A stretch of 64,000 nt of DNA from NCBI GenBank assembly GCA_964409535.1, contig CAYPDQ010000001.1:22993-86992 (forward strand), in the 5' to 3' direction. Below the pieces are notes generated by a model. The model had not been told where the DNA came from. It searched no databases and was given only the letters and a program-made list of their open reading frames with translations. This stretch comes from an uncultured Candidatus Saccharibacteria bacterium. GTDB lineage: Bacteria; Patescibacteriota; Minisyncoccia; UBA6257; 2-01-FULL-56-20. The translations under genes and the position numbers were made by a program. Below, in pieces: positions 1,271 through 27,174 of the stretch. Positions within the stretch are counted from its first letter, which is position 1. Each line of letters begins with the position of its first letter.

Positions 1271-1302
1271 ATATTTAGGGTATTTTCTATGAAAACATAT
1301 AT

Positions 1303-2364: not shown

Positions 2365-2387
2365 TCCGAGCAAGTCCCGGCCAGAAA

Positions 2388-3623: not shown

Positions 3624-3628
3624 ACAAG

Positions 3629-6299: not shown

Positions 6300-7258
6300 A
6301 TATTCTTCTTAGTATTTGCATTCCTACGTACAACCAAGTTGGTGAGTTGCGCGAGACCCTCAAAAGCCTCGTGCCCCAACTGAAGGAAGAAGTTGAAGTG
6401 GTAATCGGGGACGACAGTGATAACCTGGACTCCTCCGAAATGATCAAGAGAGAATTCAGCTCTTACCCGATCCGCCACTTCAAAAACGAAAAGCGTCTGG
6501 GTTTTGACAAGAATCTTCTATTCGTCACCGGCCAGGCGCGCGGCCGCTATATCTGGTGGTTCGGCGACGATGTTTTTGAACCAGATGCTCTATCTTATAT
6601 CTTGCCTGTCCTAAAACGGGATCCGGAGATATCTTTCCTATGGGTCAATTCCATCAACTCTTCTTCTTCGGGTCACCGCTTTCCCAGCCTGCCCTACACG
6701 AAAGACAAGATATGGCCGGACGGCAACGAGGTTCTAAAAGATGCTTCAAATCTTCTTGCTTTTGTCTCCGCGATTGTCTTTCGAAAGGAAGATATCGCTG
6801 ATCTAAACGTGGAAAAAATGGAAAAAATCGTGGATCTTGGGTTTATCAATCTTCACATCGTGCTTCATCTTCTTTCAAAGAAAAATAAATTTTATTGTGT
6901 CAGCAAGCCCTTGTTTGAAGTAAAACCTACCGCGCCCGGGATGCACAATTACAATCGTTTTCAAGTTTTGGGCATAAATTACTGTAAAGTTGCTTCCGCG
7001 TTCCGTGGTAAATTCGCTAGAAAATCAATGAGGGTTTTGCTGGCAAATAACTTTGGCCACGTGTGGCGCGGGGTGCTTGTGGGATGGCTGCGGGGATATG
7101 ACACGCCTCGCGGAAAAACCGGGGCGGTCTTAAGGTATTACTGGAGCTTTCCTGAAGCGTGGGCTGCAATGCTTCTCTTTTTGATGCCGAAGTTCGTAAC
7201 CCGGTTTTCGTATTTTTTCTATAAACGAATCCTGCGTCGGACCTATTCTACTGCTTGA
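6296..7258 (+). CDS. Glycosyltransferase family 2
   Basis: N-terminal ICIPTYNQ...DDSD motif typical of GT-A/GT2 enzymes. Confidence 0.75.
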   Translation: MNILLSICIPTYNQVGELRETLKSLVPQLKEEVEVVIGDDSDNLDSSEMIKREFSSYPIRHFKNEKRLGFDKNLLFVTGQARGRYIWWFGDDVFEPDALSYILPVLKRDPEISFLWVNSINSSSSGHRFPSLPYTKDKIWPDGNEVLKDASNLLAFVSAIVFRKEDIADLNVEKMEKIVDLGFINLHIVLHLLSKKNKFYCVSKPLFEVKPTAPGMHNYNRFQVLGINYCKVASAFRGKFARKSMRVLLANNFGHVWRGVLVGWLRGYDTPRGKTGAVLRYYWSFPEAWAAMLLFLMPKFVTRFSYFFYKRILRRTYSTA

Positions 7259-7276: not shown

Positions 7277-8482
7277 TCACTTCGTCTCATACTGCTCCTC
7301 CACATAACCTTTGCGAAGCCAGGAGGGAAATCGGTATGTCCGCCCGAACCCGCCCATCTCTCTTATTATTTTCGGAATGACAAGGCTTCTGTGTTCCGTA
7401 CCAGAAAATAAACGCGCCTGATGTTCATGGTTTATACTAAGCAGATACTTTGAGCACCTTTTAACTTTGTTCAAATAATCCTCAACAACTTCCTTCCCCA
7501 TCTCAGGAAAGGAGTCCTGGTTAAAAACCAAACCATGCTTTTTGTTGCCGAATTCCCAATAGGGTAAGATGCGAATGGCCTTCCCCTCATCGGGTTCTCC
7601 GTACAGAACAAGCTTAGCGTCCGGCAGCGCTTTGATCAGATGCCACGCTGTCATCACATTCATAACCGGGAGATCAAAAAGAGAATAGTCCCGGAAGCCA
7701 AATCTATGCGCATATACTGCAACTTTACCCAGCCCACCTCCGATTTCCCCAACGGGGGTCTCACTCCCCACTATACTGCTAATTCTCCACGCTGCATAAA
7801 GAGATTGTAGGTCCCGGAATTCAAACAACCCGCTCCTTAGTTCCAATTTAAACAAACCCCCGTCAACCTCGGGCGGAGCGATTTTTATACTCAACTTCTT
7901 TTCTATCTTTTCCACCAACCAATCGGGGTCCGCGTAGATATTCTTCTTTGCAACGTATGGAATGACTGTTTCGTAGGGCAAAATATCCAACGCTTCGGCA
8001 AGCGAAACAAGTATATCTTTTATCAGCGCGGCTTCCCTCCTCCTCAAGTAAGAACTTTTTCTCAAACTCCGGTACTCGGCAACATTACCCGACACACCAT
8101 ATGTGGATTTCCACCGATGCATGTTAGAGAGATAATCCGCGAGAGATTGCGAATCTTCGTCAAGAAGTATTTTAAGCAGCTCACTATGGTACGTCTTCCT
8201 GTTATCGTCCCACGCATCCGGGTATGCTTTTTGTGGTGCATATTTCTCCTCATCCGAGGATGCCCTACGAAAGGCTCCTAAGATTCTCTCTGCTACGGCG
8301 CGGTCCCTCTCACTGGTGTTAAATATAGACACACTTAACTTGCCGTAAGGAAACCCTTCGGGCATAGGATGAAAAAAGAGGTTTCTGTCGTATCGGACGA
8401 AAAATCTTTTAAAGACCTTCATTAGAAGAAGAGGCATACCCCCTTCTTCCAATACGAACTTTATCCTTGAGAAAATTCCCAT
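7277..8482 (-). CDS. Class I SAM-dependent methyltransferase-like protein (putative sugar O-methyltransferase), paralog A
   Basis: 401 aa with an EIGGGLGK glycine-rich SAM-binding motif. About 50% identical to the divergently transcribed ORF at 8566-9786. Confidence 0.5.
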   Translation of the reverse strand: MGIFSRIKFVLEEGGMPLLLMKVFKRFFVRYDRNLFFHPMPEGFPYGKLSVSIFNTSERDRAVAERILGAFRRASSDEEKYAPQKAYPDAWDDNRKTYHSELLKILLDEDSQSLADYLSNMHRWKSTYGVSGNVAEYRSLRKSSYLRRREAALIKDILVSLAEALDILPYETVIPYVAKKNIYADPDWLVEKIEKKLSIKIAPPEVDGGLFKLELRSGLFEFRDLQSLYAAWRISSIVGSETPVGEIGGGLGKVAVYAHRFGFRDYSLFDLPVMNVMTAWHLIKALPDAKLVLYGEPDEGKAIRILPYWEFGNKKHGLVFNQDSFPEMGKEVVEDYLNKVKRCSKYLLSINHEHQARLFSGTEHRSLVIPKIIREMGGFGRTYRFPSWLRKGYVEEQYETK

Positions 8483-8565: not shown

Positions 8566-9786
8566 GTGAAAGTACTTATCCAAGCAAAAAAAGCGATAAA
8601 CGAAGGAGGGTTGCCGCTCCTATTTGAAAAAATATGGCGGAAACTTCGAACGAGCTACCTGTACTACTTCGCTCCCGCTCACCAGATGCCGAAGGGCTTA
8701 CCTTCGGTACGCGTGGAATTCACAATAACGACGCCCGCCAAGGACGACGTTTTGATAGCAAAGAGAATACTGGCAGCTTTCCAGAAGGCATCTAAAGATG
8801 AGGGCGAACACGCAAATCTCCATAAGTCCGACAAGGATTCATGGGATAATATCGGGAACCAATACCATGCGGATTTCTACCGGATTCTATTTGCAAACGA
8901 TGCGTATCAGGTTGCTGATCGTCTGCGCAATATGCATTCGGACAAGTTGACGTTCGGAATATCGGGTGGTTCAACCGAGTACAATGATCTAATATCCAGC
9001 GCGAGGCTTAGAAGCGAAAAGGGGGTTATTGTAAAAGACATTCTTGTCTCTTTTGCCGAAACGTTAGGAATCTTGCCATACGAAACCAACGTACCGTATA
9101 TGGCAAAAAAGAACATTTATGCCGATTCCGACTGGCTCGTTGACGAAATCGAAAAGAAGATCGGTATCTCTATCATCCCGCCGGAAATCGACGGCGGGTT
9201 GTTCAAGCTCAGGCTAAAGAAAGGATTGTTTGATATGCGAGACCTTTGGTCTTTATATGCAGCCTGGCGTATCAGTCGGATTATCAAAACAAAATCCCGA
9301 GTATGCGAAATCGGTGCAGGCTTGGGCAAATCCGCTTTGTATGCAGACAGGTTCGGCTTTCGGGACTACGCCATTTTTGACCTGCCCATCATCAACGCCG
9401 TCCAAGCTTGGTATCTAATCAAGGCCCTGCCCAAAAGAGCCATTGTGCTCTATGGCGAAAAGCGCGACGAAAAAGATTCTATTAAAATAATGCCTTACTG
9501 GAAATTTATGGAAGGGACCGATTTCTACGAATTGGTGCTGAATGAAGATTCATTCCCCGAAATCGACCGAGAAGTAGTGGACAAGTACTTACAGAAAATG
9601 AAAGAGCGTGCAAGATACTTCTTGAGCATCAACCAGGAATTCGGAGCTCCTGCTTTTGCGGGTGCCAGTCAGAACCACCAAATTGTTCCACACAGGGTTG
9701 AAACTTCGGGTGGATATAAAAGAATCCACCGCTTTCCCTTCTGGCTAAGGAAGGGCTACGTAGAGGAACTGTATGAGATACCATAG
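8566..9786 (+). CDS. Class I SAM-dependent methyltransferase-like protein (putative sugar O-methyltransferase), paralog B
   Basis: 406 aa with an EIGAGLGK motif and the same C-terminal ...RFPFWLRKGYVEELYE ending as paralog A. Confidence 0.5.
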   Translation: MKVLIQAKKAINEGGLPLLFEKIWRKLRTSYLYYFAPAHQMPKGLPSVRVEFTITTPAKDDVLIAKRILAAFQKASKDEGEHANLHKSDKDSWDNIGNQYHADFYRILFANDAYQVADRLRNMHSDKLTFGISGGSTEYNDLISSARLRSEKGVIVKDILVSFAETLGILPYETNVPYMAKKNIYADSDWLVDEIEKKIGISIIPPEIDGGLFKLRLKKGLFDMRDLWSLYAAWRISRIIKTKSRVCEIGAGLGKSALYADRFGFRDYAIFDLPIINAVQAWYLIKALPKRAIVLYGEKRDEKDSIKIMPYWKFMEGTDFYELVLNEDSFPEIDREVVDKYLQKMKERARYFLSINQEFGAPAFAGASQNHQIVPHRVETSGGYKRIHRFPFWLRKGYVEELYEIP

Positions 9787-9788
9787 TA

Positions 9789-10874
9789 TTACAAAGGCAT
9801 CCCCATCATCCTGAATATATCCTCAAAACGCTTTTCCGTGGAGTGGTCGCGGATGGTGCGCTCGTAGCCCCGGCGCGCAATCTCCTCCCGCTCCCCGGGA
9901 TGAGCCAGATAATACCTTATCTTCTCCACTAAGTCTTTTTCGTCTTTATATACCACGATCTCTTCTCCAAGTTTGTAGTAATCCCGCAGGTCGTCCGCGT
10001 CCTCGGTAAGCTCGAACGTACCGCACGCGGGCACCTCAAAGTTCCTGGCTCTTACCCACGAATTCCGTTTCATAGACCACATCCGGACGTTGTCGTAGAA
10101 GTTCCAGATGTCCGGTTTGATGGGAAGTCCTCCTTCTCCCAAGTCTGCGCGACGCAAAAAGAGACGCACAATCGGCCGCCAGCCGACGTAAAACGGGGCT
10201 GTATTCAAAGACAGCACGATTTTACTTCGGTTGATAATGCCAACAAGCTCATCTTGGCTCACCGGCCCCTCCGGCCAACCGGTTCCCCGCACGAACACCG
10301 GTATGCCAGCATTTTTAACATAACTGATGACGCGCTGACGCGTCTTGTTCCAAAGACCGATAAAGCTTACATCGATGTCTTTTTTTCTGTTTTCCAGCTT
10401 CCTGAATTCCTCAAGATCCACGCCCGGTTGATGATGAATGACGTTGTTACACCCAATACTTTTATATTTTTTGACCGCGCGCGAATCGTAGGTCACAATC
10501 CACGTAAAATATTTGGCGACATGGCGGCCGAACCGCTCCCACCGCCATGTGTCGTCATCAGCGATGTAAACGAATGTTGTGAATTTCTGATTGCGCATTT
10601 TTTTGAAAAGTTCCCTGCCCCAATCGTTTTCGCTGAAGCCGGCAATACATACGTCGGGCTTCGCTCGCACGATATGTTCCCAGAGTTTCTTCCTTGCCTC
10701 CTCGCGTCCATAGGTAATAATTGCATCGTCAAAAAAGAAAGCATCCACCGTGTGGCCGCGCGGCTCCGCGGCTTTAGCGAGAGGCACTTGAAGGCGATAA
10801 TTCCCGTCAGCCACGCGAAGCTGTTTCCAGTCCCTGTCCCAGACGTATTTATATGTGACGATGAGGATCTTCAT
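9789..10874 (-). CDS. Glycosyltransferase (GT1-like / CgeB-DUF3880 family)
   Basis: Probable start at the internal ATG (MKILIVTYKY...). The C-terminal region matches the glycosyltransferase group 1 / CgeB family (E...L..Y..G..I). Confidence 0.55.
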   Translation of the reverse strand: MKILIVTYKYVWDRDWKQLRVADGNYRLQVPLAKAAEPRGHTVDAFFFDDAIITYGREEARKKLWEHIVRAKPDVCIAGFSENDWGRELFKKMRNQKFTTFVYIADDDTWRWERFGRHVAKYFTWIVTYDSRAVKKYKSIGCNNVIHHQPGVDLEEFRKLENRKKDIDVSFIGLWNKTRQRVISYVKNAGIPVFVRGTGWPEGPVSQDELVGIINRSKIVLSLNTAPFYVGWRPIVRLFLRRADLGEGGLPIKPDIWNFYDNVRMWSMKRNSWVRARNFEVPACGTFELTEDADDLRDYYKLGEEIVVYKDEKDLVEKIRYYLAHPGEREEIARRGYERTIRDHSTEKRFEDIFRMMGMPL

Positions 10875-11652
10875 GAGGCATATTCCTTTTGAAATTCTCA
10901 TATTCTTCAAGCCACGCGCCGAGCATAGCCGCGTTTTCTTTCCCGACGAGAGACAGCCCCAACATCTCGCGGACAATCGCCTCCTCATCGATCTCGGCAC
11001 GCGGGTCTTTCTCCGCCACTGCCAAGACATTTGGCATCGCATTGCCGCCGTACCGCTCGTAAAACGAATTCGGTGTTAGGCGCCCAAGCGGATTCAAAAT
11101 AGGCAAGTAGAGCGATTCGGGCAAGCGCGCAAATAACTTGCCGACGACGGGTAATTTTTGCGCGTGCTTCGCGACGCCATGCCAGTAGGAACGTATTTTT
11201 ATATTACGGAATCCGGTTTTGTGGAGCACGAATTTGAATTTCCGTTTGTCCCAAAAATCACGGTGTTCCGCCCAAGATGCTTCCTGTGACCCAAAAATGT
11301 GCCGCCCCAATTGGAAACGCCGCCGGAGCGAAGTGGCACGACAGTATTCACGGGCAGACATTTCAAAATCAGGCGTTTCAATGACGAGTATGCCTCTGGG
11401 CTTGAGCCACCGCCGCCAGTTGAGAAGTAAACCTAAAGCGACGGAACGCGTGAAATGTTCAAACAAGTGGTGACTTCGCACCTCATCGACGGTACCTTCG
11501 GGAAAAGACAGCGTCCGGATATCGGCATATCGGTCCGCCCTTGGACGCATTACGCTATGCTCGCTTGGCGGGAAATCAATATTCACATATCCCTCTAAAT
11601 ACTTTTCCCCGCTCCCCAGATGCAGTTTCACCGGCCGCTTTTGCATTTCCAT
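10849..11652 (-). CDS. Class I SAM-dependent methyltransferase
   Basis: 267 aa with a Methyltransf_11-like core (VLDLGCG-like region HLGSGEKYLEGYVNID). Overlaps the downstream GT start by 26 nt. Confidence 0.55.
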   Translation of the reverse strand: MEMQKRPVKLHLGSGEKYLEGYVNIDFPPSEHSVMRPRADRYADIRTLSFPEGTVDEVRSHHLFEHFTRSVALGLLLNWRRWLKPRGILVIETPDFEMSAREYCRATSLRRRFQLGRHIFGSQEASWAEHRDFWDKRKFKFVLHKTGFRNIKIRSYWHGVAKHAQKLPVVGKLFARLPESLYLPILNPLGRLTPNSFYERYGGNAMPNVLAVAEKDPRAEIDEEAIVREMLGLSLVGKENAAMLGAWLEEYENFKRNMPHEDPHRHI

Positions 11653-11661
11653 TCTCCAATA

Positions 11662-12195
11662 TCATACAAGGTTTTTGAACGGATTCACAGAACCTTTCGC
11701 CGCGTCGCGCGCACTTAAAACCGGGTTTTCTGTTGGCCAGTTTATCTTGAACCGCGGATCGTTCCACTTATATGCGAACTGGCGGCCCTGGTCGTAAGAG
11801 CCGGATTGCTTGTAATGCACGATTACACTCTCGGAGAGCGCCAGATAGCCGCTCGCGTGCTTGGGCGGCACGAGAATGCTCAATCTGTTTTCCTCCCCGA
11901 GTTCAACCGAAACCCAATCGCCGAAAGAAGGCGACGCTGTGTCCGCATTGAGCGCCACAAAGAATACTTTTCCCGAAACGCAGGTGATGAGCTTGTAGCG
12001 CACGTCGTCGCCGTGCAGGCCGCGTAAGACGTTCTTCTTTGAAACCGAGATGTCGTCTTCCTCAAAGTGAACGTTAATGCCTAACTCTTTGAGTTTGGTC
12101 TCGTTCCAAATTTCAAGAAAAATTCCCCGCGCATCCGAAAACGGCTCATGCTTCAAAAGCAGCACTCCTTTCAGTTTGGTCTTCTCGATCACCAT
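11662..12195 (-). CDS. rmlC: dTDP-4-dehydrorhamnose 3,5-epimerase (RmlC-like cupin)
   Basis: 177 aa. RGLHGD..., KLITCVSGKVF and conserved His/Lys/Tyr positions of the RmlC family. Confidence 0.85.
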   Translation of the reverse strand: MVIEKTKLKGVLLLKHEPFSDARGIFLEIWNETKLKELGINVHFEEDDISVSKKNVLRGLHGDDVRYKLITCVSGKVFFVALNADTASPSFGDWVSVELGEENRLSILVPPKHASGYLALSESVIVHYKQSGSYDQGRQFAYKWNDPRFKINWPTENPVLSARDAAKGSVNPFKNLV

Positions 12196-12258
12196 GGCAA
12201 GCGTGTCGCTATACTATAAACGCAGAACACAGGAGCTGCAACTTAAATTTAGCCGCGC

Positions 12259-13335
12259 CTAAAACTGCGGATTCCAAGGGATGAATCCCGATTGGTCGCC
12301 TGGATCGGGAATATAGCTGACATCGTCAAGAAGATCCAGGTTCTGGCCAAAATAATAATTCAGCAGAACGCGGAAAGTGTTAACCGGTGTTATGGAATCG
12401 TAAAGAAGCTTGTCTCCTCCATCGGGGAAATAATAGGCGTTAAGGATAGGAAGTGAGTTAATGCCCGGGACAATCAGCTTTTTGGCTCGATCCGGTTCAG
12501 CCAGATTTTTCAGCATATCCTCGTCGTTCGAGAAGCGAAAGCCGTGATCTCCCTGCAGTATTATGATAGGCTCGGGTTCGGAGCGTTCCAGCAACGTATC
12601 TACAAGCTTTACGACTTCTTTGTTGATATACGCTACCTGGCCAAGATAGTTTTCCACTGCGTTTCTCTCGGTGGCCTCTTTCCCTGTAACGAAGTTGCCG
12701 TCGGCGTCAAAAACGTACGGAGCATGAGGCAGTAAAAAGTGAGCGAATACGAAAACCGGAGCGCCTCTCTTCTCTGGAACTTCAGCAAGTTTCCGAAGTT
12801 GGAACTGCACTCTTTCCCACTGCAGGAACCGTCTGTCCAGAAATCTCATTTTCGCCGCGAAACGCACCTCGTTGTTCAGAAAATTTTCCACATGACTGAA
12901 TGCGGTATTTTCCCATACTGCCCATTGGTATGGAGAAAACAGGGTCAAATTTACGTTTTCATCCGCATATCGGTTGAAGTAAGTGAAAGCATCCGCCCCG
13001 AAGTGTAAATACCTGTATCCATAGTAACCCAAAAAGTCTTTAACTGCGTTATCCTCGACCATCTTCAAGTTGCTGTTTGACGCCTGTCGGCTTTGAAGAT
13101 AAATCATATTCAAAGAAGACGGTAGAGATAATCCGGTTGCGTAATAATTACTCAAGCTTTGCTTGGCCACAAAAAATCCCCTCTTTTCAAGCGAGGCCAC
13201 CATCTCATCCTCCTTCTCGAAACCCATTATTTGCCTTATAACGTCCGGCGAGGAGTATGCGTCCAGAATAATATAATATATGTCGCGGAGTTCGCCGACT
13301 GGACCGTTCAATACTACTTCAGCTCTAGCCGGCAA
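12259..13335 (-). CDS. Sulfatase / alkaline-phosphatase-superfamily domain (LtaS / phosphoglycerol-transferase-like), C-terminal part of a split gene
   Basis: 358 aa. It begins DIYYIILDAYSS, which is the metal-binding start of the sulfatase domain. No N-terminal membrane anchor lies in this frame. Confidence 0.6.
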   Translation of the reverse strand: MPARAEVVLNGPVGELRDIYYIILDAYSSPDVIRQIMGFEKEDEMVASLEKRGFFVAKQSLSNYYATGLSLPSSLNMIYLQSRQASNSNLKMVEDNAVKDFLGYYGYRYLHFGADAFTYFNRYADENVNLTLFSPYQWAVWENTAFSHVENFLNNEVRFAAKMRFLDRRFLQWERVQFQLRKLAEVPEKRGAPVFVFAHFLLPHAPYVFDADGNFVTGKEATERNAVENYLGQVAYINKEVVKLVDTLLERSEPEPIIILQGDHGFRFSNDEDMLKNLAEPDRAKKLIVPGINSLPILNAYYFPDGGDKLLYDSITPVNTFRVLLNYYFGQNLDLLDDVSYIPDPGDQSGFIPWNPQF

Positions 13336-13784
13336 TATTTCCCGCTGGGCAGCAAGGTAAGCCCCCCCACCCGGAAGAAGGATAGTAAAACAAACATCCC
13401 CGATGCAGCGAAGAGAGCGTGGTTCACGGCCGATAAGTCCATTGCGGTTTTTCTAATCGCATACAACGCGAAAATGAAAACGGACAAGAGGATAATAAGT
13501 GCCCAACTGTATTGAACTTTAATTAGCGAATTAAATAAAATTCTGTAGATATACTCAAAGGAAAGAGTGAACAAGAGAAAAAGCGAGGCCGCCGGCGCTG
13601 CTTTTTGCGGATCGCGAAGAAAAAACCGTAAAATCCCGAACACTATCGCTCCGAATCCGACGAGAACCGCAACGGCTGCGGGCACCTCTCGCAGGAAAAC
13701 TTCGGCGAAATTCCTGCCCCACAAGAAAATCGCCGGCAGTATAGCAAACAGAAAAGGATGGAAAAGTTGAATTCTTTTAATCAT
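13314..13784 (-). CDS. Polytopic membrane domain (4-5 TM), likely the N-terminal part of the sulfatase/LtaS-like protein
   Basis: 156 aa, hydrophobic throughout. It overlaps the sulfatase ORF by 22 nt in a different frame. Confidence 0.5.
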   Translation of the reverse strand: MIKRIQLFHPFLFAILPAIFLWGRNFAEVFLREVPAAVAVLVGFGAIVFGILRFFLRDPQKAAPAASLFLLFTLSFEYIYRILFNSLIKVQYSWALIILLSVFIFALYAIRKTAMDLSAVNHALFAASGMFVLLSFFRVGGLTLLPSGKYCRLELK

Positions 13785-15193
13785 GCGCTTATCTTTTTCA
13801 TAAGATAGATCAGCCTCTCTGAATCGGCCAATCTCTTTTTGCCCTTGATAGAGAAGTGTTTCCCAAACTTTTTCTCAAACTCTTCTTCGCAGTAAGCCGG
13901 GAAAACATCTCTTCTGGTTGCAAGCAAACGCCCAACTTGTGAGTCGGTTTTCGGAACGAACTCCACAATTAGATTCTTACACAACCTACTGAAATACTCC
14001 GCTATCTTCCCAAAGGGAACGCCGTTGGAGATAGCAAGGTGGTGAACAAGGGCGAGGGCCAGAACCACGTCAGCCCCTCCCCTGCTTTCCAAAGACATTC
14101 TTTCTTGGTTAGCCCAGCCAACGGCGGGACTGGGGTTCGTCAAGTCCAACAAAAGAGGCAACAGGTTTTTTTCCTTCCTCTTTTTCACTTCAAGGTAATT
14201 CTCCTCGACCGCCTTTGGGTCGATATCAAAGGATACGGTTTCGATGCCCCTGTCGCTCGCAAGGCGGCTGAACTTACCGGTGTTCGCGCCGAAATCCCAT
14301 ACGGTTTTGGGATTTGCAGTAGACAAAAAGCCGGAAACGGCTTCCGTCTTTTCCGAAAACGCTTCTACAGAATAATTCGTCTCCTCATAGTAGCTTTGCC
14401 ACTCAGTTCTCTGGTTTTTGAGCAAGAGCCCGTCAACCGCAGATTTCAGGCTGTCTATAAGCGCAATAAGATTCTGGCGCGGGATGCTCCAGTGCGGCAT
14501 AGCCTTGTTGGCCGAGAATCTCTTTTGGCCCATAGCGTGGAGATGCAGATGCGAAACTACAAGCGGGTGGAATAAGGTGCGCATTGGAAGCATGGAGGCC
14601 GCCAAGTCGAGAGGTACGCCGTCGATAAAAACGCGGAAAAATTGATTCATGCGTAAATCCCGGTAGCTCATAAGCGCTAAGGGTGCCAAAAAGTGCTGAC
14701 AGAACTGACGATACCCCACCCAGGGAGATCCCTCTATGTAATTCTCGAACGAGAGCGTATCTATAAACATGGGTTGGCCGTGCCAGAATTGCACATTAAA
14801 GGCGCTTGCGTCTTTCAAAATCATGTTATGATCAAGCGCTTTTTTCTGAACTTCCAAGGTCAAAAGAGCGGCGTCTTTCAGCTGGCTGAAAGACCATTCG
14901 TAAGGATATGATATGAACGGTATCTTTTCGGGAGAAATAATCTTGTAGACCTCTCTTCTTTTAGGGGAATTTAATTTGATTTCCCGATGAGGAACTAATA
15001 GTCCACTACCTATCAATGCTTCGTAAAGCCCAGACTCTTTTGCGCAGTCATAATGTTCCTTATAACAGTAATTTACGTTTCGGTATATCGTTCCGCCCTT
15101 CGCAAAAAGAGAGCCGCCTGGATCTCGAAAAGAACTCGGAATCTCCGTTCGATTAAACCTGCTCATCGGTTTTCTTATCCTCATCTTTTTCAT
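13781..15193 (-). CDS. Two-domain protein with a C-terminal class I SAM-dependent methyltransferase
   Basis: 470 aa. The DFGANTGKFS motif I and the downstream acidic motif place the MTase domain in the C-terminal half. The N-terminal half has no recognisable family. Confidence 0.5.
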   Translation of the reverse strand: MKKMRIRKPMSRFNRTEIPSSFRDPGGSLFAKGGTIYRNVNYCYKEHYDCAKESGLYEALIGSGLLVPHREIKLNSPKRREVYKIISPEKIPFISYPYEWSFSQLKDAALLTLEVQKKALDHNMILKDASAFNVQFWHGQPMFIDTLSFENYIEGSPWVGYRQFCQHFLAPLALMSYRDLRMNQFFRVFIDGVPLDLAASMLPMRTLFHPLVVSHLHLHAMGQKRFSANKAMPHWSIPRQNLIALIDSLKSAVDGLLLKNQRTEWQSYYEETNYSVEAFSEKTEAVSGFLSTANPKTVWDFGANTGKFSRLASDRGIETVSFDIDPKAVEENYLEVKKRKEKNLLPLLLDLTNPSPAVGWANQERMSLESRGGADVVLALALVHHLAISNGVPFGKIAEYFSRLCKNLIVEFVPKTDSQVGRLLATRRDVFPAYCEEEFEKKFGKHFSIKGKKRLADSERLIYLMKKISA

Positions 15194-15413
15194 CCAGTGG
15201 CGTCCCGGCTTGATCGGAGCCGAAAGGTTTTTTCAACCTCCGCCACAATACTCTGAGGTAAAAAGCTGCGCCCAAAATGCCCGCCAAAATTGCTTGAACT
15301 ATGAAGCTGCCTGTTCCCAAGTCAATATAAGCTTCGGCGGTTAGCGGATTCACCAGTCCCAAGAACGAAAGAAGCAAAATCCATGCCGTCATTTCTTGCT
15401 TAGAAAGTATCAT
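15153..15413 (-). CDS. Small membrane protein (2 TM)
   Basis: 86 aa with two hydrophobic helices and a charged C-terminus. Confidence 0.35.
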   Translation of the reverse strand: MILSKQEMTAWILLLSFLGLVNPLTAEAYIDLGTGSFIVQAILAGILGAAFYLRVLWRRLKKPFGSDQAGTPLDEKDEDKKTDEQV

Positions 15414-15437: not shown

Positions 15438-16004
15438 TCAGTGCAGTTGAGGGATTATTTCCTCGCACCAGGCGTGGAGCACCAGCGCGTGAATTTCCTG
15501 GACGCGCGCCGTCGTGCTGGACGGCACGATAATAGCTACGTCGCACTTCTCCCGCGCCGCGCCGCCGTCCCCGCCCAAGAGCCCGACGACTTGAAGCCCT
15601 TTTTTCTTTGCTTCCTCCATTGCTAAGAGGACATTCCGTGAATTGCCACTCGTCGTGATTCCCAAAAATACATCTCCTCTATCACCGAATGTCTGCACTT
15701 GCCTTGCGAATACGCCGTCGTATCCGAAATCGTTCGCCCAAGCGGTTAAAAAAGAAGTGTCCGTGGTAAGCGCCAAAACAGGATAGCCGCTGCGCTTTTC
15801 TTTCTTCAACGTCGCTACGAATTCCGCCGCGAAATGCTGGGCGTCGGCGGCGCTTCCGCCGTTCCCAGCGACAAGTATTTTCCCGCCGCCCAAAAGCGCC
15901 GCCCGGAGCAATTCCCCGGCCTTTTCAAAGCCGGTCCCGAAAGACGGGTCCGAACCGACTTTCCGGAGTAAATCTTCCAATTCCCGCGCGCTTTCTGCAA
16001 ACAT
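15438..16004 (-). CDS. gmhA: D-sedoheptulose-7-phosphate isomerase (SIS domain)
   Basis: 188 aa. GNGGSAADAQHFAAE and SGNS motifs typical of GmhA. Confidence 0.85.
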   Translation of the reverse strand: MFAESARELEDLLRKVGSDPSFGTGFEKAGELLRAALLGGGKILVAGNGGSAADAQHFAAEFVATLKKEKRSGYPVLALTTDTSFLTAWANDFGYDGVFARQVQTFGDRGDVFLGITTSGNSRNVLLAMEEAKKKGLQVVGLLGGDGGAAREKCDVAIIVPSSTTARVQEIHALVLHAWCEEIIPQLH

Positions 16005-16014
16005 GGTGCTAAAA

Positions 16015-16908
16015 TTATAACTTGATCCAGCCCTCGGACACTATCTCCGCCGGATGCCCGTCTGCGTACCATCTCTCCGGCGCAACCACGATCTTCCCGG
16101 GGTTCTCGTTCAACCATGCACCCCACCAAGAGAAAGTGCTGTTGGCGACAATATTGTGTTTACAAAGCGACATAAACCGCAAATGAGAAGCGCCGCTGGG
16201 TCCGCCCAAAGACTCTTCAACAAAGGTCGCAGGGGAGGTTATTTTCAGATTCTCACGGCACCACGGGACATCGTCGGAGAAAACGAAGAAATGTAACTGT
16301 TTGACGCGAGAGGAAACATAAGTAATCGCGCGGCTGTAGTAATTAAGGTCGGTTTTCCCGTGCAGGTCCTCCACTCTTTTCATAGTCGCATAATCCCCCC
16401 GGCGGATATGCACGGAAACGGAGTTGGTTTTCCGAATTTCTTCTGCGAACCGCGCCGCTTCGCCAGTCAGTCCGTCCCTGAATCTGAACGCCGCCTTTAC
16501 ATCCTCCGCCGCCTCGCGGAAATATTTTTCCGTCTGCCAGCGGCCCCAGAGCACTGCATTGTCCCGGGTCATAAGCACGTCTGGATCAAAATGCCGCTCA
16601 TCCTTTTCTTTTACGATGCGGCATATCCCAAGCGTGCGGCGCAGCTGCATTAAAGCGAGGTCAAGTCCGAGCCAAAAGCCGGGAACCGGCAGAGCGGAGG
16701 AAGTCCGGGAAAGGAACGAAAATCGCGGCTTGAGCATAAAACCGTCCAGCGCGTAAGTGCGGTAGGCAAAATCCCTTCGCGGAAAGCGGTCGTTCAAAAA
16801 TGTCGTATCCAAAAGGAGTTCGCTCTTGTTTTTCTTCGCGAGGTTCAAGCCCAAAGCGTATTGGAACATCTGGTTGCCCAGGCCGCCGCGAAGGAAAACG
16901 GTTATCAT
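16015..16908 (-). CDS. Glycosyltransferase family 11 (alpha-1,2-fucosyltransferase-like)
   Basis: GGLGNQMFQYA motif near the N-terminus. The start ATG overlaps the stop of the upstream epimerase (ATGA). Confidence 0.75.
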   Translation of the reverse strand: MITVFLRGGLGNQMFQYALGLNLAKKNKSELLLDTTFLNDRFPRRDFAYRTYALDGFMLKPRFSFLSRTSSALPVPGFWLGLDLALMQLRRTLGICRIVKEKDERHFDPDVLMTRDNAVLWGRWQTEKYFREAAEDVKAAFRFRDGLTGEAARFAEEIRKTNSVSVHIRRGDYATMKRVEDLHGKTDLNYYSRAITYVSSRVKQLHFFVFSDDVPWCRENLKITSPATFVEESLGGPSGASHLRFMSLCKHNIVANSTFSWWGAWLNENPGKIVVAPERWYADGHPAEIVSEGWIKL

Positions 16909-17891
16909 GCACTCCGCGCTTTCACCACTTGCTCCGCGACCCACGCATATGTCTTGCGCAAACCGTCTTCCAGTTTTGCCGACGGCGCCCAGCCAAGTTT
17001 CTCCCGGATAAGCTTGTTATCCGAGTTCCGCCCGCGGACGCCCAAGGGGCCGGGAACGTGCTTTACCGAAAGTTTTTTTCCGGCAATCCGCATAACCGTA
17101 TCCGCAAGCCGGTTTATGCTAACCATCTCTTCCGAGCCGATGTTCACCGGTCCGGTAAAATCCGAGTCCATCAAACGCCTCACTCCTTCCAGGCATTCAT
17201 CAATATAGAGGAAGGATCGCGTCTGCTCGCCGTCGCCCCAAATCTCTATCTCTCTCCCGTCCGCAGTTTCCGCAACCTTGCGGCAGATCGCCGCAGGGGC
17301 TTTCTCTCTTCCCCCTCGCCACGTTCCCTCCGGCCCGAAAATATTGTGGAAGCGGGAGATGCGCACGTTCAAGCCGTAGTTTCTGTTAAAGGCGAGGTAT
17401 AAGCGCTCGCTGAAAAGCTTCTCCCAGCCGTACTCGCTGTCCGGTTCCGCAGGGTAGGCGGAGTCCTCCGAACATTTGGGGTTCTGGGGGTCGGTCTGAT
17501 TGCGAGCGGGGTAAATGCACGCCGAAGAGGAGTAGAAAACTTTCCTTATACCTTTTTTATGTCCGTAGAAAACGGCATGTAGGTTGATCTGGGCGGAATT
17601 GTGCATTACGTTAGCATCGTTGTCGCCGGTGAAGATATAACCCGCTCCGCCCATGTCCGCTGCGAGTTGATAGACCTCATCGAATGGCCGGTCCAAAACC
17701 TTTTCCCAGGTGCCCTCCAGTCGCAGATCGCCGATCACAAAATCGTCCGCCGCTGTTTGGCTGAACTCCGGGTATTTCAAATCCACGCCACGCACCCAGA
17801 AGCCCTCGTTTTTCAAGCGGCGGACCAGATGGCTGCCGATGAAGCCGCCGGCGCCGCAGACCAATGCATTCTTTTTATTGCTGCTTGCCAT
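16905..17891 (-). CDS. GDP-mannose 3,5-epimerase homolog (extended SDR; product GDP-L-galactose / GDP-L-gulose)
   Basis: 328 aa. Long colinear matches to plant and bacterial GME: GAGGFIGSH, SSACIYP, RFHNIFGPEGTWRGGREKAPAA.CRK, GPLGVRGRNSDN.LI.EKLGWAP. Confidence 0.75.
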   Translation of the reverse strand: MASSNKKNALVCGAGGFIGSHLVRRLKNEGFWVRGVDLKYPEFSQTAADDFVIGDLRLEGTWEKVLDRPFDEVYQLAADMGGAGYIFTGDNDANVMHNSAQINLHAVFYGHKKGIRKVFYSSSACIYPARNQTDPQNPKCSEDSAYPAEPDSEYGWEKLFSERLYLAFNRNYGLNVRISRFHNIFGPEGTWRGGREKAPAAICRKVAETADGREIEIWGDGEQTRSFLYIDECLEGVRRLMDSDFTGPVNIGSEEMVSINRLADTVMRIAGKKLSVKHVPGPLGVRGRNSDNKLIREKLGWAPSAKLEDGLRKTYAWVAEQVVKARSA

Positions 17892-17894
17892 TTG

Positions 17895-18518
17895 CTATTT
17901 GTCGCTCTCCGGCAATTCTTCTAAAACGCCTTGAACCCTTTCGTCCGATGACCAGTTGTTCGCGATTCTCTCTCCCACTTCTCTGGCTTTCTCAAAATCC
18001 CCGACCAAGCGGTAAGCGTCGAAAAGTCCGTAAAGGAACTGGGGCCGATCCGGCGAAAGACGCAAGCCCTTCTCGAAATAAGCTATGGTTGCGGCGAGAT
18101 GCCGTCCGTCCCGGGTTTTCATGAGCGCCGCCTGATGCATCAGGCCCAGTACATAGAGATCCTGGCTGAAACTCATCCCCCGGCCGCGCTCAATGATCGG
18201 AGTATAGAACGACTCCGCAAAATTGACCAACCTTTCCGGCTCGGCGGTTCCTCCCTGGATCAAATCCAAAACCATCCCGGTCGCCTGGCGCACGAGTTCC
18301 TCCTGGCCTATCGGCGAGGGCGCAAGAAGCGGACCGGACATTATGCTCTCAAACAGTTCCGGAGTGAGCTTGTCGTTTGCGGAAATCGTCTCCACCGCCC
18401 GCATCCCGCGAATGAAAGCGGCGGACTTTCTCATTGGAAGGAAACTGCCCAAGTACGCGAGAGCGACGAGCATCGCCGCGAGCGTCACGCCGATGGTTTT
18501 TCTAATGAGCGGTTGCAT
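17895..18518 (-). CDS. Hypothetical membrane-anchored protein
   Basis: 207 aa with an N-terminal hydrophobic segment and no recognisable domain. Confidence 0.35.
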   Translation of the reverse strand: MQPLIRKTIGVTLAAMLVALAYLGSFLPMRKSAAFIRGMRAVETISANDKLTPELFESIMSGPLLAPSPIGQEELVRQATGMVLDLIQGGTAEPERLVNFAESFYTPIIERGRGMSFSQDLYVLGLMHQAALMKTRDGRHLAATIAYFEKGLRLSPDRPQFLYGLFDAYRLVGDFEKAREVGERIANNWSSDERVQGVLEELPESDK

Positions 18519-19854
18519 TCTTATATAGAATATGGCTGGCGAACGCGAGGAAGATGAAAACGTTCATATATATCGGCAGGACGTCAAAAAGCACCAGGCC
18601 CTGAACGAGATAACCGACCGGCAGGGCGAGCATCAAACCCTTCAAAACCGGCCCGCGCTGCGCCTTCTTGAGCAACTCCCAAAAGAAAGTCGCCCAAATC
18701 CCCAGGAAAGCCGCGAGGCCGAGAATTCCGGTTTCCGCAAGGTAGTCGAAGACGATACTGTGCGCACGATCGAACCAGGTCTCGGTGTTTTGACCGGGCA
18801 CGAAGTGGCGCGGATCGAGATACCTGTCAAAAACTGCGCTGAAATTTTCCGGTCCCCATCCCAAAAGCGGCCGCTCCTTGAATCCCTGCCACGCCGAATT
18901 CCATGTCCAAAGACGGGTTTGCACGGTTTCGGCGCCGAAGTTCAAGTCCAAAAGCCGGCCGCCGGCGAAATTATTTAAGAAATCGGCGCCACGCACGGAA
19001 AAAAGAACACCTCCGGTCAAAACTAAAACTAAGAGTGCCGCTATGCTGAATTTCCGGAGCTGGCCTTCGTCCTTCAGGGCCGCGAACGCCAGAAACGCGA
19101 CAACTGCCGCGCCCAGCCCCAAAAAGGCGCCGCGTGTCTGGCTCAACATAAAGAAAAGAAGGAAAACAAAGAGCAACCCCGAGTAGGCAAGGGCGACTGG
19201 GAGTCGCCGGCTTTTTCCGCTCCACCAAAGCCACAATGCGTAAAACATTGAGAACATAAGATAAGGAGCCACGTAGGCGGGATTGCCCAAAGAACCTTGG
19301 AACCGCGCAAGGGGGTGAAAAAGACGGCCTAAGGTGGAAGGAGCAAAAGGTTTATCCTCGGCGCGATATTGGCCAAAAAATCCAGGCACGAATCCGGCAG
19401 CAAGCACGCCGTACAAAATCATGAGTATGGCGGCCGCAAGAGACAGCCAGAACAACTTTCGCCAGTCCTTTTCTTCCCGGAAAAGCAACGCGAGCAAAAC
19501 GAAGAAAGCGTAATAGTGCAGCATCTGAAATCCGCCGTCGCCGCGTTCGTAGTTAGACCAGAAAGCGGCGCTTGCGTCATAGGCAAAAATGGAAGCTAAA
19601 AGGAAAACGCCGACGAAGACACTTACGGCAATAACTAGCGGCTTACGGAAAAGTTCTTTCAACCGCTGGGGAGCAATCTTCGCTCCCTCCGGGTCAAATG
19701 CCCACCACAGGATGAAAGAAGCCAGCGCCATCTCCACCGCCACCCGGAAAAAGTAGTACTTGCCGCCGATGAACGGGAAGAAAGTGGAGGGCAAAACCAC
19801 GACCACGGCGAAGACCGAGGCGTAGAGAAAAAATTTGGAGAGCTTAAGGAACAC
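18502..19854 (-). CDS. O-antigen ligase / polymerase family (Wzy_C-like) integral membrane protein
   Basis: 450 aa, at least 10 TM segments and a large periplasmic loop typical of WaaL/Wzy. Confidence 0.6.
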   Translation of the reverse strand: MFLKLSKFFLYASVFAVVVVLPSTFFPFIGGKYYFFRVAVEMALASFILWWAFDPEGAKIAPQRLKELFRKPLVIAVSVFVGVFLLASIFAYDASAAFWSNYERGDGGFQMLHYYAFFVLLALLFREEKDWRKLFWLSLAAAILMILYGVLAAGFVPGFFGQYRAEDKPFAPSTLGRLFHPLARFQGSLGNPAYVAPYLMFSMFYALWLWWSGKSRRLPVALAYSGLLFVFLLFFMLSQTRGAFLGLGAAVVAFLAFAALKDEGQLRKFSIAALLVLVLTGGVLFSVRGADFLNNFAGGRLLDLNFGAETVQTRLWTWNSAWQGFKERPLLGWGPENFSAVFDRYLDPRHFVPGQNTETWFDRAHSIVFDYLAETGILGLAAFLGIWATFFWELLKKAQRGPVLKGLMLALPVGYLVQGLVLFDVLPIYMNVFIFLAFASHILYKNATAH

Positions 19855-19855: not shown

Positions 19856-21349
19856 TTACTTGGCGTATTCCACCGCCCGGACCTCCCGTATGACGTTCAC
19901 TTTTATCTCGCCGGGATATTTGAGTTCCGACTGTATCCGGTTCGCGATCTCCCGCGCCAACTCCAGTGCCCGGAAGTCGTCCACTTTCTCCGGCACAACG
20001 AAGACCCGCAGCTCCCGCCCGGCGGAAATGGCGTAGGCCTGCTTCACCCCCGGGAACTCCAGCGCGATCTTCTCCAGGTCGGCCAGACGCTTGATGTAGT
20101 TCTCCACACTATCCCTACGCGCTCCCGGCCGGGCGGCGGAGATCACGTCCGCCGCGGTTATGACGTAGGCCTCGGGATTGGCGTAGGGATAGTCCTCGTG
20201 GTGGGACTGCATCGCTTCTATCACCCGGTCGTCAATGCCGTACTTTTTCAAAATCTTCCGGCCGATCTCCACGTGCGTGCCTTCCACTTCATGGTCGATC
20301 GCTTTGCCAATGTCGTGGAGAAGCGCGGCTTTTCTCGCCACCTCCACGTTCAGCCCCAACTCCGCGGCGATCATCGCCGCGATATAAGCCATCTCGACGG
20401 AGTGAGTGAGAACGTTCTGGCCGTAACTCGTACGGAAATGCAGACGGCCGATGAGTTGGAGTATCTCTTTAGGCATATCATACACTCCGACCTCCATCGC
20501 CGCCGCCTCCCCTATCTCCAAGATCCGCTTTTGCATCTCCTCTTTCGCTTCCTCCACCTTCTCCTCTATTTTCGCCGGCTGGATGCGCCCGTCCTTTATG
20601 AGCTTGGCCAAAGCCAGGCGCGCGATCTCCCGCCGGTAGGGATCGAAAGAAGAGATGACCACGGCATCCGGGGCTTCGTCGATTACGAACTCCACTCCGG
20701 TCGCCCGTTCCAGGGCGCGGATGTTCCGCCCTTCCCGGCCGATGATCTTGCCCTTAATCTCTTCGTTCTCCAGAGGGAAAACGCTCGTAGTCACCTCCGA
20801 TATGTGGGAACGGGCATAGCGCTGCAAGGCGACGGTGATCACGTCCATCGCTTTCTTCTCTATCTCCTCGTGCCGCTCCTTGTCCATTTTCTGGAGGGTT
20901 TGGGCAAGCTCCTGGGCGTTGTCTTCCCGAACCTTCGCCAAAAGCTCGCGCTTGGCCTCTTCCCGGCCCAAACCGCTCACCCGCTCCAATTCCGCAACCG
21001 CGTTCTTCCTGACCTCTCCGATCTTCTCCGTTTCCGCCGCGAGTTCTCCCGTCTTCCGCCGCAACTCTTCTTCGCTCTTGCCCAGAGCGGAAACTTTCTT
21101 GTCCAGATTTTCCTCCCGCTCCAAAAGGCGGGACTCCAACTCGGCGATTTTATCCCGCCGCTTTTCTTCTTCTTTCTTCGCTTCCTCTAAGAGGGAAGCG
21201 GCCTTTTCCTTGGCTTCAAGGATTACCTCCTTGGCCTGAGATTCCGCCGATTCTTTAAGCTTTTGCGCCCGCTGCCGGCGCAAAAGATACCCGAAGACGA
21301 CGCCCAAAACCAAGCCCAGCCCCGCAAGGGCTAAAGAGTTTATATCCAT
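19856..21349 (-). CDS. rny: Ribonuclease Y (N-terminal TM, KH and HD domains)
   Basis: 497 aa. Coiled-coil N-terminus, KH (IIGREGRNIRALE) and HD (LLHDIGKA) domains. Confidence 0.9.
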   Translation of the reverse strand: MDINSLALAGLGLVLGVVFGYLLRRQRAQKLKESAESQAKEVILEAKEKAASLLEEAKKEEEKRRDKIAELESRLLEREENLDKKVSALGKSEEELRRKTGELAAETEKIGEVRKNAVAELERVSGLGREEAKRELLAKVREDNAQELAQTLQKMDKERHEEIEKKAMDVITVALQRYARSHISEVTTSVFPLENEEIKGKIIGREGRNIRALERATGVEFVIDEAPDAVVISSFDPYRREIARLALAKLIKDGRIQPAKIEEKVEEAKEEMQKRILEIGEAAAMEVGVYDMPKEILQLIGRLHFRTSYGQNVLTHSVEMAYIAAMIAAELGLNVEVARKAALLHDIGKAIDHEVEGTHVEIGRKILKKYGIDDRVIEAMQSHHEDYPYANPEAYVITAADVISAARPGARRDSVENYIKRLADLEKIALEFPGVKQAYAISAGRELRVFVVPEKVDDFRALELAREIANRIQSELKYPGEIKVNVIREVRAVEYAK

Positions 21350-21689
21350 GGAATTTGATATTTAAATTCTTCATGAGGTTGACGTTTTAGATGACTCCAT
21401 CATAGCACTTCGCTGCGCCCCCGGTCAACTGCGCTCCGGCCTTCGCCCTCGGAGGCCCGGCGTCGGTTTTCGTAGAGCAGAAAACCGCGCCTGCATCTCG
21501 GCCAAATCGTTCCTACTCTTCTTGCACGGGTAGATGTTTAGTTGTGGACGATGATTCTTTTAACCACGTCGTATCTGACGTCAGAACCAATGTAGATTTG
21601 GCCTCCGATAGCGCCTCCTCCGGGCGAAGGCCTGCGCGCTGGGCAGGCATTGGATCTATAGGCCGCTCCTGATTCCGCTAAGCAGACCG

Positions 21690-26010: not shown

Positions 26011-26088
26011 GGGTCTTTGCCCGCGAGGACGAGTCCCTTGGCGGCGAAGTCCGAGCGTCGCAAACACCTTAATTTTAACAAAATTGGC

Positions 26089-27174
26089 ATGGATCCGTTT
26101 CTAAAAAACATCCTGGAATTCAACCGCCAGCTTACGACGGCCGGGCTCCAGCTCTCCAACCTCAAGCGGCTGAAAAAAGGCGGCTATGACTCCGTTCTCA
26201 TAGTCGGAATGGGCGGCTCTGGCCTCGCCGGCGAACTTCTGAAAGATGTGCAGGAGGAATTGGGACTCAAGGTTCCGGTTTTCACCTGGAAAGATTACGG
26301 CCTGCCCGAACCGGAAACGTTCGGTGCAAAGAAACCGCTCTACCTCTTCGTCTCTTTCTCCGGCAACACCGAAGAAACACTCTCCGGCTTCAAATCTGCT
26401 CTAAAACCTAAAACCTATAACCTAAAACCTCATTCCATTGCGGCCGTTGCCCACGGCGGCGAACTCGCCCGCCTCGCGAAGCGCGCGGGAGCACCACTGG
26501 TTCTCTTTCCGGCCGCAGATCCCGTTAGAAGTCCGACATTCGGCCCCGCGAATGTCGGCAGAAACCGGGGGTTTCTTACTTCTAACGGGACAGACTTGAA
26601 TCCCAGGCAATATACTGGTAGGATGTTCTACGCACTGATCCAAGTACTCCGGGCCGCCCGCCTTATTTCTTCCGAGCCGCAGACCTACATCCGGCTCCAA
26701 CCCGCGTCTTTCAAAAAGGAGGGTGCATATCTCGCCAAACGCCTTAAGGGCAGGGTCGTGCTCCTCTACACCGACCGGCGAAGCCATGGCCTGGGCTATG
26801 TCTGGAAAGCTAAATTAAACGAAACCGCAAAGCAGCTCGCTTTCCTGAACGCCGTGCCTGAGATGAACCACAACGAGCTCACCGGCCTTGTTTTCCCAAA
26901 AACCAAGCTGGCCGCGCTATTCATAAGCGATACGTCCGCCCCTGCGGCCGGGGCAGGGCGGACGCGGAAAAGAATCCGGATCAATCTCAAACTTTTAAAG
27001 AAGAAAGGGGTGCAAGCAGAGGAAGTTCCGCTCCAGGGCAAGAGCCGGATGGAGAAGATGTGGAATTCCATAATGCTCGCGGACTGGACCGCATACGAAC
27101 TTGCCAAGATGAACGGCGCGGACCCGGCGGAGATCAAAATAGTTGAAGAGTTGAAAAGTTCGATGAAAAAATAA
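26089..27174 (+). CDS. Bifunctional phosphoglucose/phosphomannose isomerase (SIS domains)
   Basis: Start chosen at the internal ATG (MDPFLKNIL). SIS motifs GMGGSGLAGE and SFSGNTEET. Contains a heptamer-repeat insert (LKPKTYNLKP). Confidence 0.7.
   Translation: MDPFLKNILEFNRQLTTAGLQLSNLKRLKKGGYDSVLIVGMGGSGLAGELLKDVQEELGLKVPVFTWKDYGLPEPETFGAKKPLYLFVSFSGNTEETLSGFKSALKPKTYNLKPHSIAAVAHGGELARLAKRAGAPLVLFPAADPVRSPTFGPANVGRNRGFLTSNGTDLNPRQYTGRMFYALIQVLRAARLISSEPQTYIRLQPASFKKEGAYLAKRLKGRVVLLYTDRRSHGLGYVWKAKLNETAKQLAFLNAVPEMNHNELTGLVFPKTKLAALFISDTSAPAAGAGRTRKRIRINLKLLKKKGVQAEEVPLQGKSRMEKMWNSIMLADWTAYELAKMNGADPAEIKIVEELKSSMKK

Follow-up and report, generated by a model that had tools for sequence, protein, structure and literature searches.

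The closest described relatives of the system analyzed here are the GDP-mannose 3,5-epimerases (GME, or GM35E; EC 5.1.3.18) of Arabidopsis (AtGME, PDB 2C59) and Methylacidiphilum fumariolicum (MfGM35E), both of them extended short-chain dehydrogenases/reductases (SDRs). In bacteria, 18 UniProt entries for this family were counted in 2019 (PMC6678494), and a single characterized bacterial enzyme, MfGM35E, stands beside BlmG and the A201A enzyme (PMC6678494; PMC8787198). Fucosyltransferases of several families, AtFUT1 among them, accept GDP-L-galactose (hereafter GDP-L-Gal), and L-galactose takes the place of L-fucose on a given acceptor if the donor available is GDP-L-Gal, as for AtFUT1 in the mur1 mutant, FUT8, and FucTA (PMC8787198). 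Here, we describe a GME homolog whose gene overlaps that of a family 11 glycosyltransferase (GT11), followed by a gene for a GmhA-type isomerase, in a 64,000-nucleotide stretch (the window) of contig CAYPDQ010000001.1 from an uncultured Candidatus Saccharibacteria bacterium of the Candidate Phyla Radiation (CPR, or Patescibacteria). Whereas the cases above are mutant or in vitro ones and concern eukaryotic GT37, GT23, and GT10 enzymes, in this case the use of GDP-L-Gal would be the native state of a bacterial GT11. In the searchable literature, we found no characterized GT11 that uses GDP-L-Gal, no native bacterial GME-GT11 pair, and no bacterial L-galactosyltransferase; the only similar arrangement is annotated in the cell-wall cluster of cyanophage S-SCSM1, where GME (ORF123) and an alpha-1,2-fucosyltransferase (ORF126) lie a few genes apart (PMC9602691). 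Unlike the window, that cluster, which is known from annotation only, also contains Gmd (ORF121) and Fcl (ORF122; PMC9602691), and because of these two genes it permits no inference about the donor.

The explanation that we favor, with a probability of roughly 0.6, is that GME would make GDP-L-Gal, that the coupled GT11 would transfer it, and that GmhA would start the supply of heptose for the same glycan. The family membership of the three proteins, their order, and the conservation of that order are direct observations; the epimerase is a GM35E family member and the transferase a GT11 member, both of them known families.

The epimerase and its partner transferase

In a phmmer search of all PDB sequences, the SDR matched five GME chains at 335–348 bits (E ~1e-99 to 1e-103), the best match being Arabidopsis GME (2c59; 348 bits, E = 4.9e-103), to which it is ~51% identical over 320 aligned columns. 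All other SDRs in the PDB, among them GDP-fucose synthase (Fcl), UDP-xylose synthase, and GalE, scored at most 94 bits, the value for the best Fcl, and an identity as Fcl, GalE, or RmlB is ruled out by these bit scores. Pfam Epimerase covers residues 9–252 (137 bits). The catalytic apparatus is that of AtGME throughout: the NAD-binding GxxGxxG motif reads GAGGFIG (residues 13–19); S123, Y154, and K158 correspond to the triad S143, Y174, and K178 at a constant offset of 20 residues; C125 (in SSACIYP) and K197 (in GGREK) correspond to the acid-base pair C145 and K217; and R286 (in GVRGRN) corresponds to the supporting R306. In the published mechanism, the Ser/Tyr/Lys triad is complemented by the Cys/Lys pair as acid and base for epimerization at C5 and C3 and by the supporting Arg (PMC6678494). 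These catalytic residues are invariant or nearly so across 87 aligned bacterial homologs. Unlike plant GME, the window SDR is ~50 residues shorter, at the two ends, and is encoded in a CPR surface-glycan operon, not in an ascorbate or cell-wall pathway. No NCBIfam model claims it (the best match is Fcl, 104 bits, with the cut-off at 500), which accounts for the generic labels that these proteins carry in their sources. Judged by its matches, the SDR is very probably a true GM35E.

The partner transferase matches PF01531 over its full length (1.5e-34; residues 1–295 on model positions 1–295 of 298). It carries HIRRGDY at residues 167–173 (window 16390..16410), an instance of the HxRRGD(Y) motif that binds the nucleotide sugar in alpha-1,2 and alpha-1,6 fucosyltransferases, as well as STFSWWGAWL near its C terminus; 29 GT11 orthologs share R169 and D172 without exception, with at least 90% conservation at H167 and R170. 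By sequence, no relative was detected in the PDB. With a confident AF2 model (pLDDT 89.9, pTM 0.90) as the Foldseek query, ranks 1–29 are all GDP-fucose fucosyltransferases (NodZ, AtFUT1, POFUT1, and FUT8; E = 6e-6 to 2e-4, TM ~0.45–0.53). From the family match and the predicted structure, the protein is a genuine GT11 member with a fucosyltransferase-type, GT-B-like fold. It thus shares the full PF01531 domain, the HxRRGD motif, and the predicted fold with the bacterial GT11 alpha-1,2-fucosyltransferases, examples of which are FutC, WbsJ, and WbgL, the family also including the colitosyltransferase WbgN; unlike them, it is paired with GME and not with Gmd/Fcl, which would imply GDP-L-Gal as its natural donor.

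An earlier note on this DNA had placed three genes here, with the stop codon of the SDR and the start codon of the GT11 gene sharing an ATGA; both the list of open reading frames (ORFs) and the sequence agree and put all three on the minus strand, and the peptide motifs that it cited are all found in the translation. Its assignments also stand: the SDR belongs with GME (348 bits) rather than with Fcl or GalE (94 bits), and the clustering with those enzymes that it had named as contrary evidence was not seen; the GT11 tightly linked to the SDR is a genuine one by its PF01531 and structural matches; and the protein adjoining the pair is of the GmhA type by its best PDB and NCBIfam matches.

Recurrence of the pair and alternation with Gmd/Fcl

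Same-strand neighbors with a 4-nt overlap are frequent in bacteria, and the overlap has little meaning alone; the informative evidence for the pairing of GME and GT11 is its recurrence in other genomes. Among CPR relatives, the two genes are adjacent in L081, L082, L084, L085, and L170 (L numbers denote the loci compared), and the order iPGM/RNase Y/Wzy_C/~210-residue protein/GME/GT11 is kept in all of these except L085, which keeps the pair. The relatives include Liptonbacteria, Paceibacterota, and Minisyncoccia. In the syntenic Patescibacteria loci, what precedes the orthologous GT11s (55–70% identity) is of two kinds: six loci have GME in this slot, and the other four have Gmd or Gmd plus Fcl (both genes in L083, L167, and L169, and Gmd in L168). 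The GT11s of the latter type are orthologs at 55–60% identity, with upstream synteny kept in three of the four loci, and the identity of the alternative enzymes is supported in L083 by 518 bits for Gmd (above the cut-off) and 296 bits for Fcl (its best match). In the 64-kb window, neither Gmd nor Fcl was found with family profiles, and tblastn with the L083 Gmd and Fcl gave superfamily-level matches only; for a 353-residue SDR (1303..2364), the nearest match is dTDP-glucose 4,6-dehydratase (310 bits), with gmd reaching only 73 bits.

By these assignments, a one-gene, predicted GDP-L-Gal route and a two-gene, predicted GDP-L-fucose route alternate before the same transferase, and this alternation is the most telling comparative support for the use of GDP-L-Gal by GT11, which it makes a supported prediction. 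It looks like a natural version of the promiscuous use of GDP-L-Gal by the eukaryotic fucosyltransferases. If the prediction is right, one gene (GME) has been swapped for two (Gmd and Fcl) before the same transferase, that is, a natural replacement of a donor pathway, and L-galactose would replace L-fucose at one position of the glycan while close relatives use L-fucose.

Some of the related clusters hold genes of other kinds. In two loci of the Gmd/Fcl type, toxin-antitoxin or abortive-infection genes lie directly against GT11 inside the glycan cluster; they encode HicB-like, Polbeta/NTP_transf_2, and HepT-like proteins (L167, 5498..7726) or AbiEi/AbiEii (L168, 6972..8557). In L081, a 6-phospho-3-hexuloisomerase (HxlB, 190 bits, above the cut-off) is found beside a ribulose-phosphate 3-epimerase (11253..12490); these pentose-phosphate/ribulose monophosphate genes sit among the glycosyltransferases of the syntenic glycan cluster.

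The earlier note had called GME uncommon in bacteria, and this did not hold up. A scan of one genome per species gave at least 598 related stretches from many phyla, and a protein search with the window GME gave at least 8000 candidates, of which the best 120 are all 75–81% identical to it, many of them from Patescibacteria and Neomarinimicrobiota. The best 80 of the at least 598 stretches, each from a different species (L001–L080), come from Bacteroidota, Acidobacteriota, Planctomycetota, Chloroflexi, Nitrospirae, Ignavibacteria, Alpha-, Gamma-, and Deltaproteobacteria (including cultured Bradyrhizobium and Emticicia), several CPR groups, and a metagenome-assembled genome of Nanoarchaeia; across these dozen or so bacterial phyla and the Nanoarchaeia genome, GME remains 69–81% identical to the window protein. 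Such identity across phyla suggests that constraint is very strong, that horizontal transfer is frequent, or both. The survey revises the published impression of few bacterial GMEs: the family is widespread and unusually conserved.

Of these 80 loci, 11 have a GT11 no more than 10 kb from GME, and in three unrelated genomes (L001, L005, and L009) it is immediately downstream of GME. A metagenome scan for GT11 (80 loci), which returned mostly distant members (33–41% identity) and was used as background, showed GME near GT11 in three loci (L085, L136, and L156), in none of which GmhA was found. As further observations on L001–L080, GME is far more conserved than the adjoining glycosyltransferases; a WcaI-family GT4 often stands immediately upstream of GME; and 15 of the 80 have a nucleotide-sugar dehydrogenase (TIGR03026) no more than 6 kb from GME, directly after it in L024 and L073, which raises the question of GDP-L-hexuronic acid production in those clusters.

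Donor, heptose, and competing explanations

CPR/Patescibacteria live attached to host cells, and to our knowledge almost nothing is known about their surface glycans. In the mechanism that we propose, the SDR would act as a self-sufficient GDP-mannose 3,5-epimerase in which bound NAD+ transiently oxidizes C4, the C125/K197 pair inverts C5 and C3, and the 4-keto group is then reduced back, with GDP-beta-L-galactose as the main product and GDP-L-gulose as a by-product. The co-translated GT11 would take GDP-L-Gal (the donor of 6-hydroxy-L-fucose) instead of GDP-L-fucose and add an alpha-linked L-galactose to the growing glycan, GmhA would begin the heptose supply for that glycan, the remaining heptose steps and the supply of GDP-mannose would be encoded outside the window, and the upstream Wzy_C/TPR pair would polymerize or ligate the product. 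What we infer in this scheme is the donor that GT11 uses, the linkage, the presence of heptose, and the glycan's fate. Transfer of L-galactose by GT11, taken by itself, is probable on the comparative evidence, and would make the two proteins a ready-made enzyme pair for L-galactosides, as sought in the GM35E biocatalysis literature (PMC8787198).

The third protein is GmhA-like by its sequence matches: it has a SIS_2 domain (5.8e-22), GmhA models are its best NCBIfam matches (DiaA is lower, at 127), and its 12 best PDB matches are all phosphoheptose isomerases, led by the Campylobacter jejuni GmhA (1TK9, 161 bits; DiaA, 121). Its link to the pair extends to relatives. GmhA directly follows GT11 in L081 (77% identical) and L084 (72%), and in L082 (61%) it is separated from GT11 by one 280-residue ORF. 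The L082 locus goes on with further parts of a GDP-heptose pathway, namely a GHMP kinase that is HddA-like, another SIS protein, and an NTP-transferase/HAD fusion, although the HddA-like proteins of the related loci score 132–165 bits, far below the curated cut-off of 600. Heptose genes also accompany the Gmd versions of the locus in L168 and L169, so that heptose is probably an additional sugar in that glycan and not what GME acts on. The kinase, phosphatase, and nucleotidyltransferase that complete the nucleotide-heptose pathway were not found in the window and are present in L082, L168, and L169; unlike a full GDP-heptose pathway, the window thus has GmhA as its only member.

Several observations weigh against the explanation as a whole. 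GmhA stays below the curated cut-offs (NCBIfam gmhA TIGR00441, 180.5 against 209.45; PRK13936/NF010546, 187.3 against 276). Pfam and tblastn searches of the 64 kb found no ManB, ManC, HddA, HddC, or GmhB, the bifunctional PGI/PMI at 26017..27174 being the only such enzyme toward GDP-mannose in the window, so the explanation has to assume that genes elsewhere in the small CPR genome supply the substrates. The transferase that most commonly adjoins GME in L001–L080 is a WcaI-family GT4 (35 of the 80 loci, against the 11 with GT11). Finally, GT11s paired with GME are not separated by overall identity from those paired with Gmd/Fcl, so a dedicated specificity for L-galactose is not evident, and GT11 could be promiscuous, or its donor could be GDP-fucose from another source. 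The earlier note had proposed both that an L-galactose (or L-gulose) residue is added and that heptose belongs to the same polymer. For the first, the alternation of GME with Gmd/Fcl before orthologous GT11s speaks in its favor, with the donor still a predicted one; for the second, a reasonable but incomplete view, the conserved linkage of GmhA to the pair stands while HddA, HddC, and GmhB are missing from the window, and the chances of its being right appear about even.

Foremost among the competing explanations, although we consider it unlikely, is that GT11 is an ordinary alpha-1,2-L-fucosyltransferase supplied with GDP-L-fucose by Gmd/Fcl encoded outside the window, the product of GME being used by another transferase, such as the Glyco_trans_1_2 enzyme (9789..11042) or the GT2 (6296..7258). 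This would fit the presence of orthologs beside Gmd/Fcl in L083, L167, L168, and L169, the lack of a sequence distinction between the two groups of GT11s, and the prevalence of GT4 over GT11 next to GME across bacterial loci, but it leaves unexplained that GME occupies exactly the Gmd/Fcl slot of syntenic relatives, with its stop codon overlapping the GT11 start, and that the gene directly upstream of GT11 is GME, and not Gmd/Fcl, in all six GME-type loci. The separate Gmd/Fcl that it calls for could lie in the remainder of the 128.7-kb contig, half of which was inspected, or in the rest of the genome; none is present in the 64 kb, and none was identified in 12–17 kb of L081, L082, L084, and L170 or 3.4 kb of L085, with not every SDR in these loci classified. 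CPR genomes are small, and redundant nucleotide-sugar pathways are rare in them, which also speaks against this alternative.

An alignment of the two groups of GT11s shows differences at columns 68, 72, 180, 183, 185, and 234, which, with six sequences against four and three of the four from one clade, are a lead only; a residue signature that separates GME-paired from Gmd/Fcl-paired GT11s is not established on so few sequences.

It is improbable that the product used is instead GDP-L-gulose, epimerized at C5 alone in the manner proposed for BlmG of the bleomycin pathway, and that the glycan carries L-gulose. GM35E enzymes do release GDP-L-gulose besides GDP-L-Gal, and a homolog with 42% identity, BlmG, has been tied to an L-gulose product (PMC6678494), but the partner GT11 is of the fucosyltransferase type, whose known donors are L-galacto configured, and the interchange with Gmd/Fcl points to an analog of L-fucose, that is, to L-galactose and not L-gulose.

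Least probable of all is that GME acts on GDP-heptose, which is GDP-mannose extended at C6, to give GDP-L-galacto-heptose in one enzyme for transfer by GT11: this would explain the attachment of GmhA, would suit the tolerance of fucosyltransferases for C6 substituents, and recalls the gene orders NTP-transferase/HddA-like/GmhA/GT26/GME in L002 and HddA-like/GmhA/GmhB/GME in L024 and the heptose-type genes that flank GME in L001, L047, and L055 (distant phyla), but heptose genes are missing near GME in ~75 of the 80 loci, in the CPR lineage such genes are likewise found with the Gmd/Fcl versions (L168 and L169), no alignment column sets the heptose-linked GMEs apart from the other 78, and the identity of 69–81% between phyla, together with an active site that does not vary, argues for one substrate. 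A residue signature for the heptose-linked GMEs was accordingly rejected. If true, this reading would offer a one-enzyme alternative to the Campylobacter capsule route, in which C. jejuni needs three enzymes for the corresponding conversion of GDP-heptose (PMC10680097).

The glycan-assembly array and the rest of the window

A long glycan-assembly array of a Patescibacteria (CPR) genome, at about 9.8–19.9 kb of the window, contains the three genes (Table 1). On the minus strand, the array runs tightly packed from RNase Y (19856..21349) down to ~9.8 kb, with overlaps or gaps of at most 63 nt, in the order Wzy_C, TPR, GME, GT11, GmhA, four extra genes, RmlC-like cupin, methyltransferase, and Glyco_trans_1_2 transferase.

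Table 1. Features of the minus-strand array around the GME-GT11 pair (window positions)
Feature	Position	Strand	Length	Remarks
Wzy_C/O-antigen-ligase-family membrane protein	18502..19854	minus	450 aa	Pfam Wzy_C 6.5e-19; head of conserved module; position syntenic in relatives
TPR-containing protein	17895..18518	minus	207 aa	3 nt upstream of GME; Pfam TPR_19 weak, 23.8 bits, below 25-bit cut-off
SDR, GME/GM35E homolog	16905..17891	minus	328 aa	
ATGA overlap of GME stop codon and GT11 start codon	16905..16908	minus		Direct sequence reading
GT11, alpha-1,2-fucosyltransferase-like	16015..16908	minus	297 aa	ATG at 16908, stop at 16015
GmhA-type sedoheptulose-7-phosphate isomerase, SIS domain	15438..16004	minus	188 aa	
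Small membrane protein	15153..15413	minus	86 aa	ORF list
Methyltransferase-like protein	13781..15193	minus	470 aa	Weak Pfam Methyltransf_23
Membrane protein	13314..13784	minus	156 aa	ORF list
Sulfatase-family protein	12259..13335	minus	358 aa	Weak Pfam Sulfatase
RmlC-like cupin 3,5-epimerase	11662..12195	minus	177 aa	Pfam dTDP_sugar_isom 1.9e-47; NCBIfam rmlC 143.5 bits vs cut-off 155.75
Glycosyltransferase, C-terminal Glyco_trans_1_2 domain	9789..11042	minus		Pfam 1.3e-30; true start probably downstream of 11042

The junction of GME and GT11 reads "...agt gcA TGA taa cc", with GGAG a few bases upstream, and GmhA starts 10 nt past the GT11 stop. In another assembly of the same population (L165), an independent gene caller gave identical 328- and 297-residue genes with the 4-nt overlap, and the arrangement of the four genes between GmhA and the RmlC-like gene matches the window. 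The GT11 sequence traces to SRA runs SRR5161805 and SRR5161795. A GTG at 16944, the listed ORF start, is ruled out as the GT11 start, since the alignment to the Pfam GT11 model begins with residue 1 of the product of the ATG at 16908; GT11 homologs of 297–300 residues, with 100% query coverage, are consistent with that ATG. In a promoter scan of the array, the one good sigma-70-like site was at 21399..21428, upstream of RNase Y, and a terminator scan found no convincing intergenic terminator within the array; neither scan is informative for CPR.

At the position of the TPR protein, a ~205–214-residue protein is found in L081, L082, L083, L084, L168, L169, and L170, and in other CPR genomes (L007) it is fused with Wzy_C into a single protein, a pairing that resembles O-antigen ligase/oligosaccharyltransferase-type enzymes. 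On the other side of the pair, the four genes at 12259..15413 are without counterparts in L081 and L084, where the RmlC-like gene directly follows GmhA and is itself followed by the Glyco_trans_1_2 glycosyltransferase.

Beyond the array, a block of lower GC occupies 1..9.8 kb of the window (46–50% over 23..7258, against 55–58% elsewhere). Its segment 23..7258 encodes a sugar C-methyltransferase, the dTDP-glucose-4,6-dehydratase-like SDR, an RfbH-like 3-dehydrase, a further SDR, the GT2 at 6296..7258, and a transketolase split into N and C halves as separate genes; by its gene content, the block looks like a 3,6-dideoxy or branched-chain sugar pathway; alternatively, the split transketolase may simply supply sedoheptulose-7-phosphate. 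Adjacent to this segment, two divergent genes at 7277..8482 (minus) and 8566..9786 (plus) encode ~400-residue proteins without a Pfam match that match the NanM-type putative sugar O-methyltransferase subfamily narrowly above its cut-off (47 and 53 bits, cut-off 44).

Farther along, a 1208-residue, IleRS/ValRS-like class I aminoacyl-tRNA synthetase (29017..32643, minus; tRNA-synt_1 and Anticodon_1) carries a His_Phos_1 domain (histidine phosphatase/phosphoglycerate-mutase-like) at residues 523–676, between the halves of its catalytic domain. A tail-fiber-like protein of 491 residues with a C-terminal Peptidase_S74 (endosialidase chaperone) domain is encoded at 38050..39525 (minus), and a sharp dip in GC (0.44 at 48–50 kb) adjoins a serine-recombinase ORF (49114..50916); 38050..39525 and the region 48000..50916 may be a mobile-element remnant.

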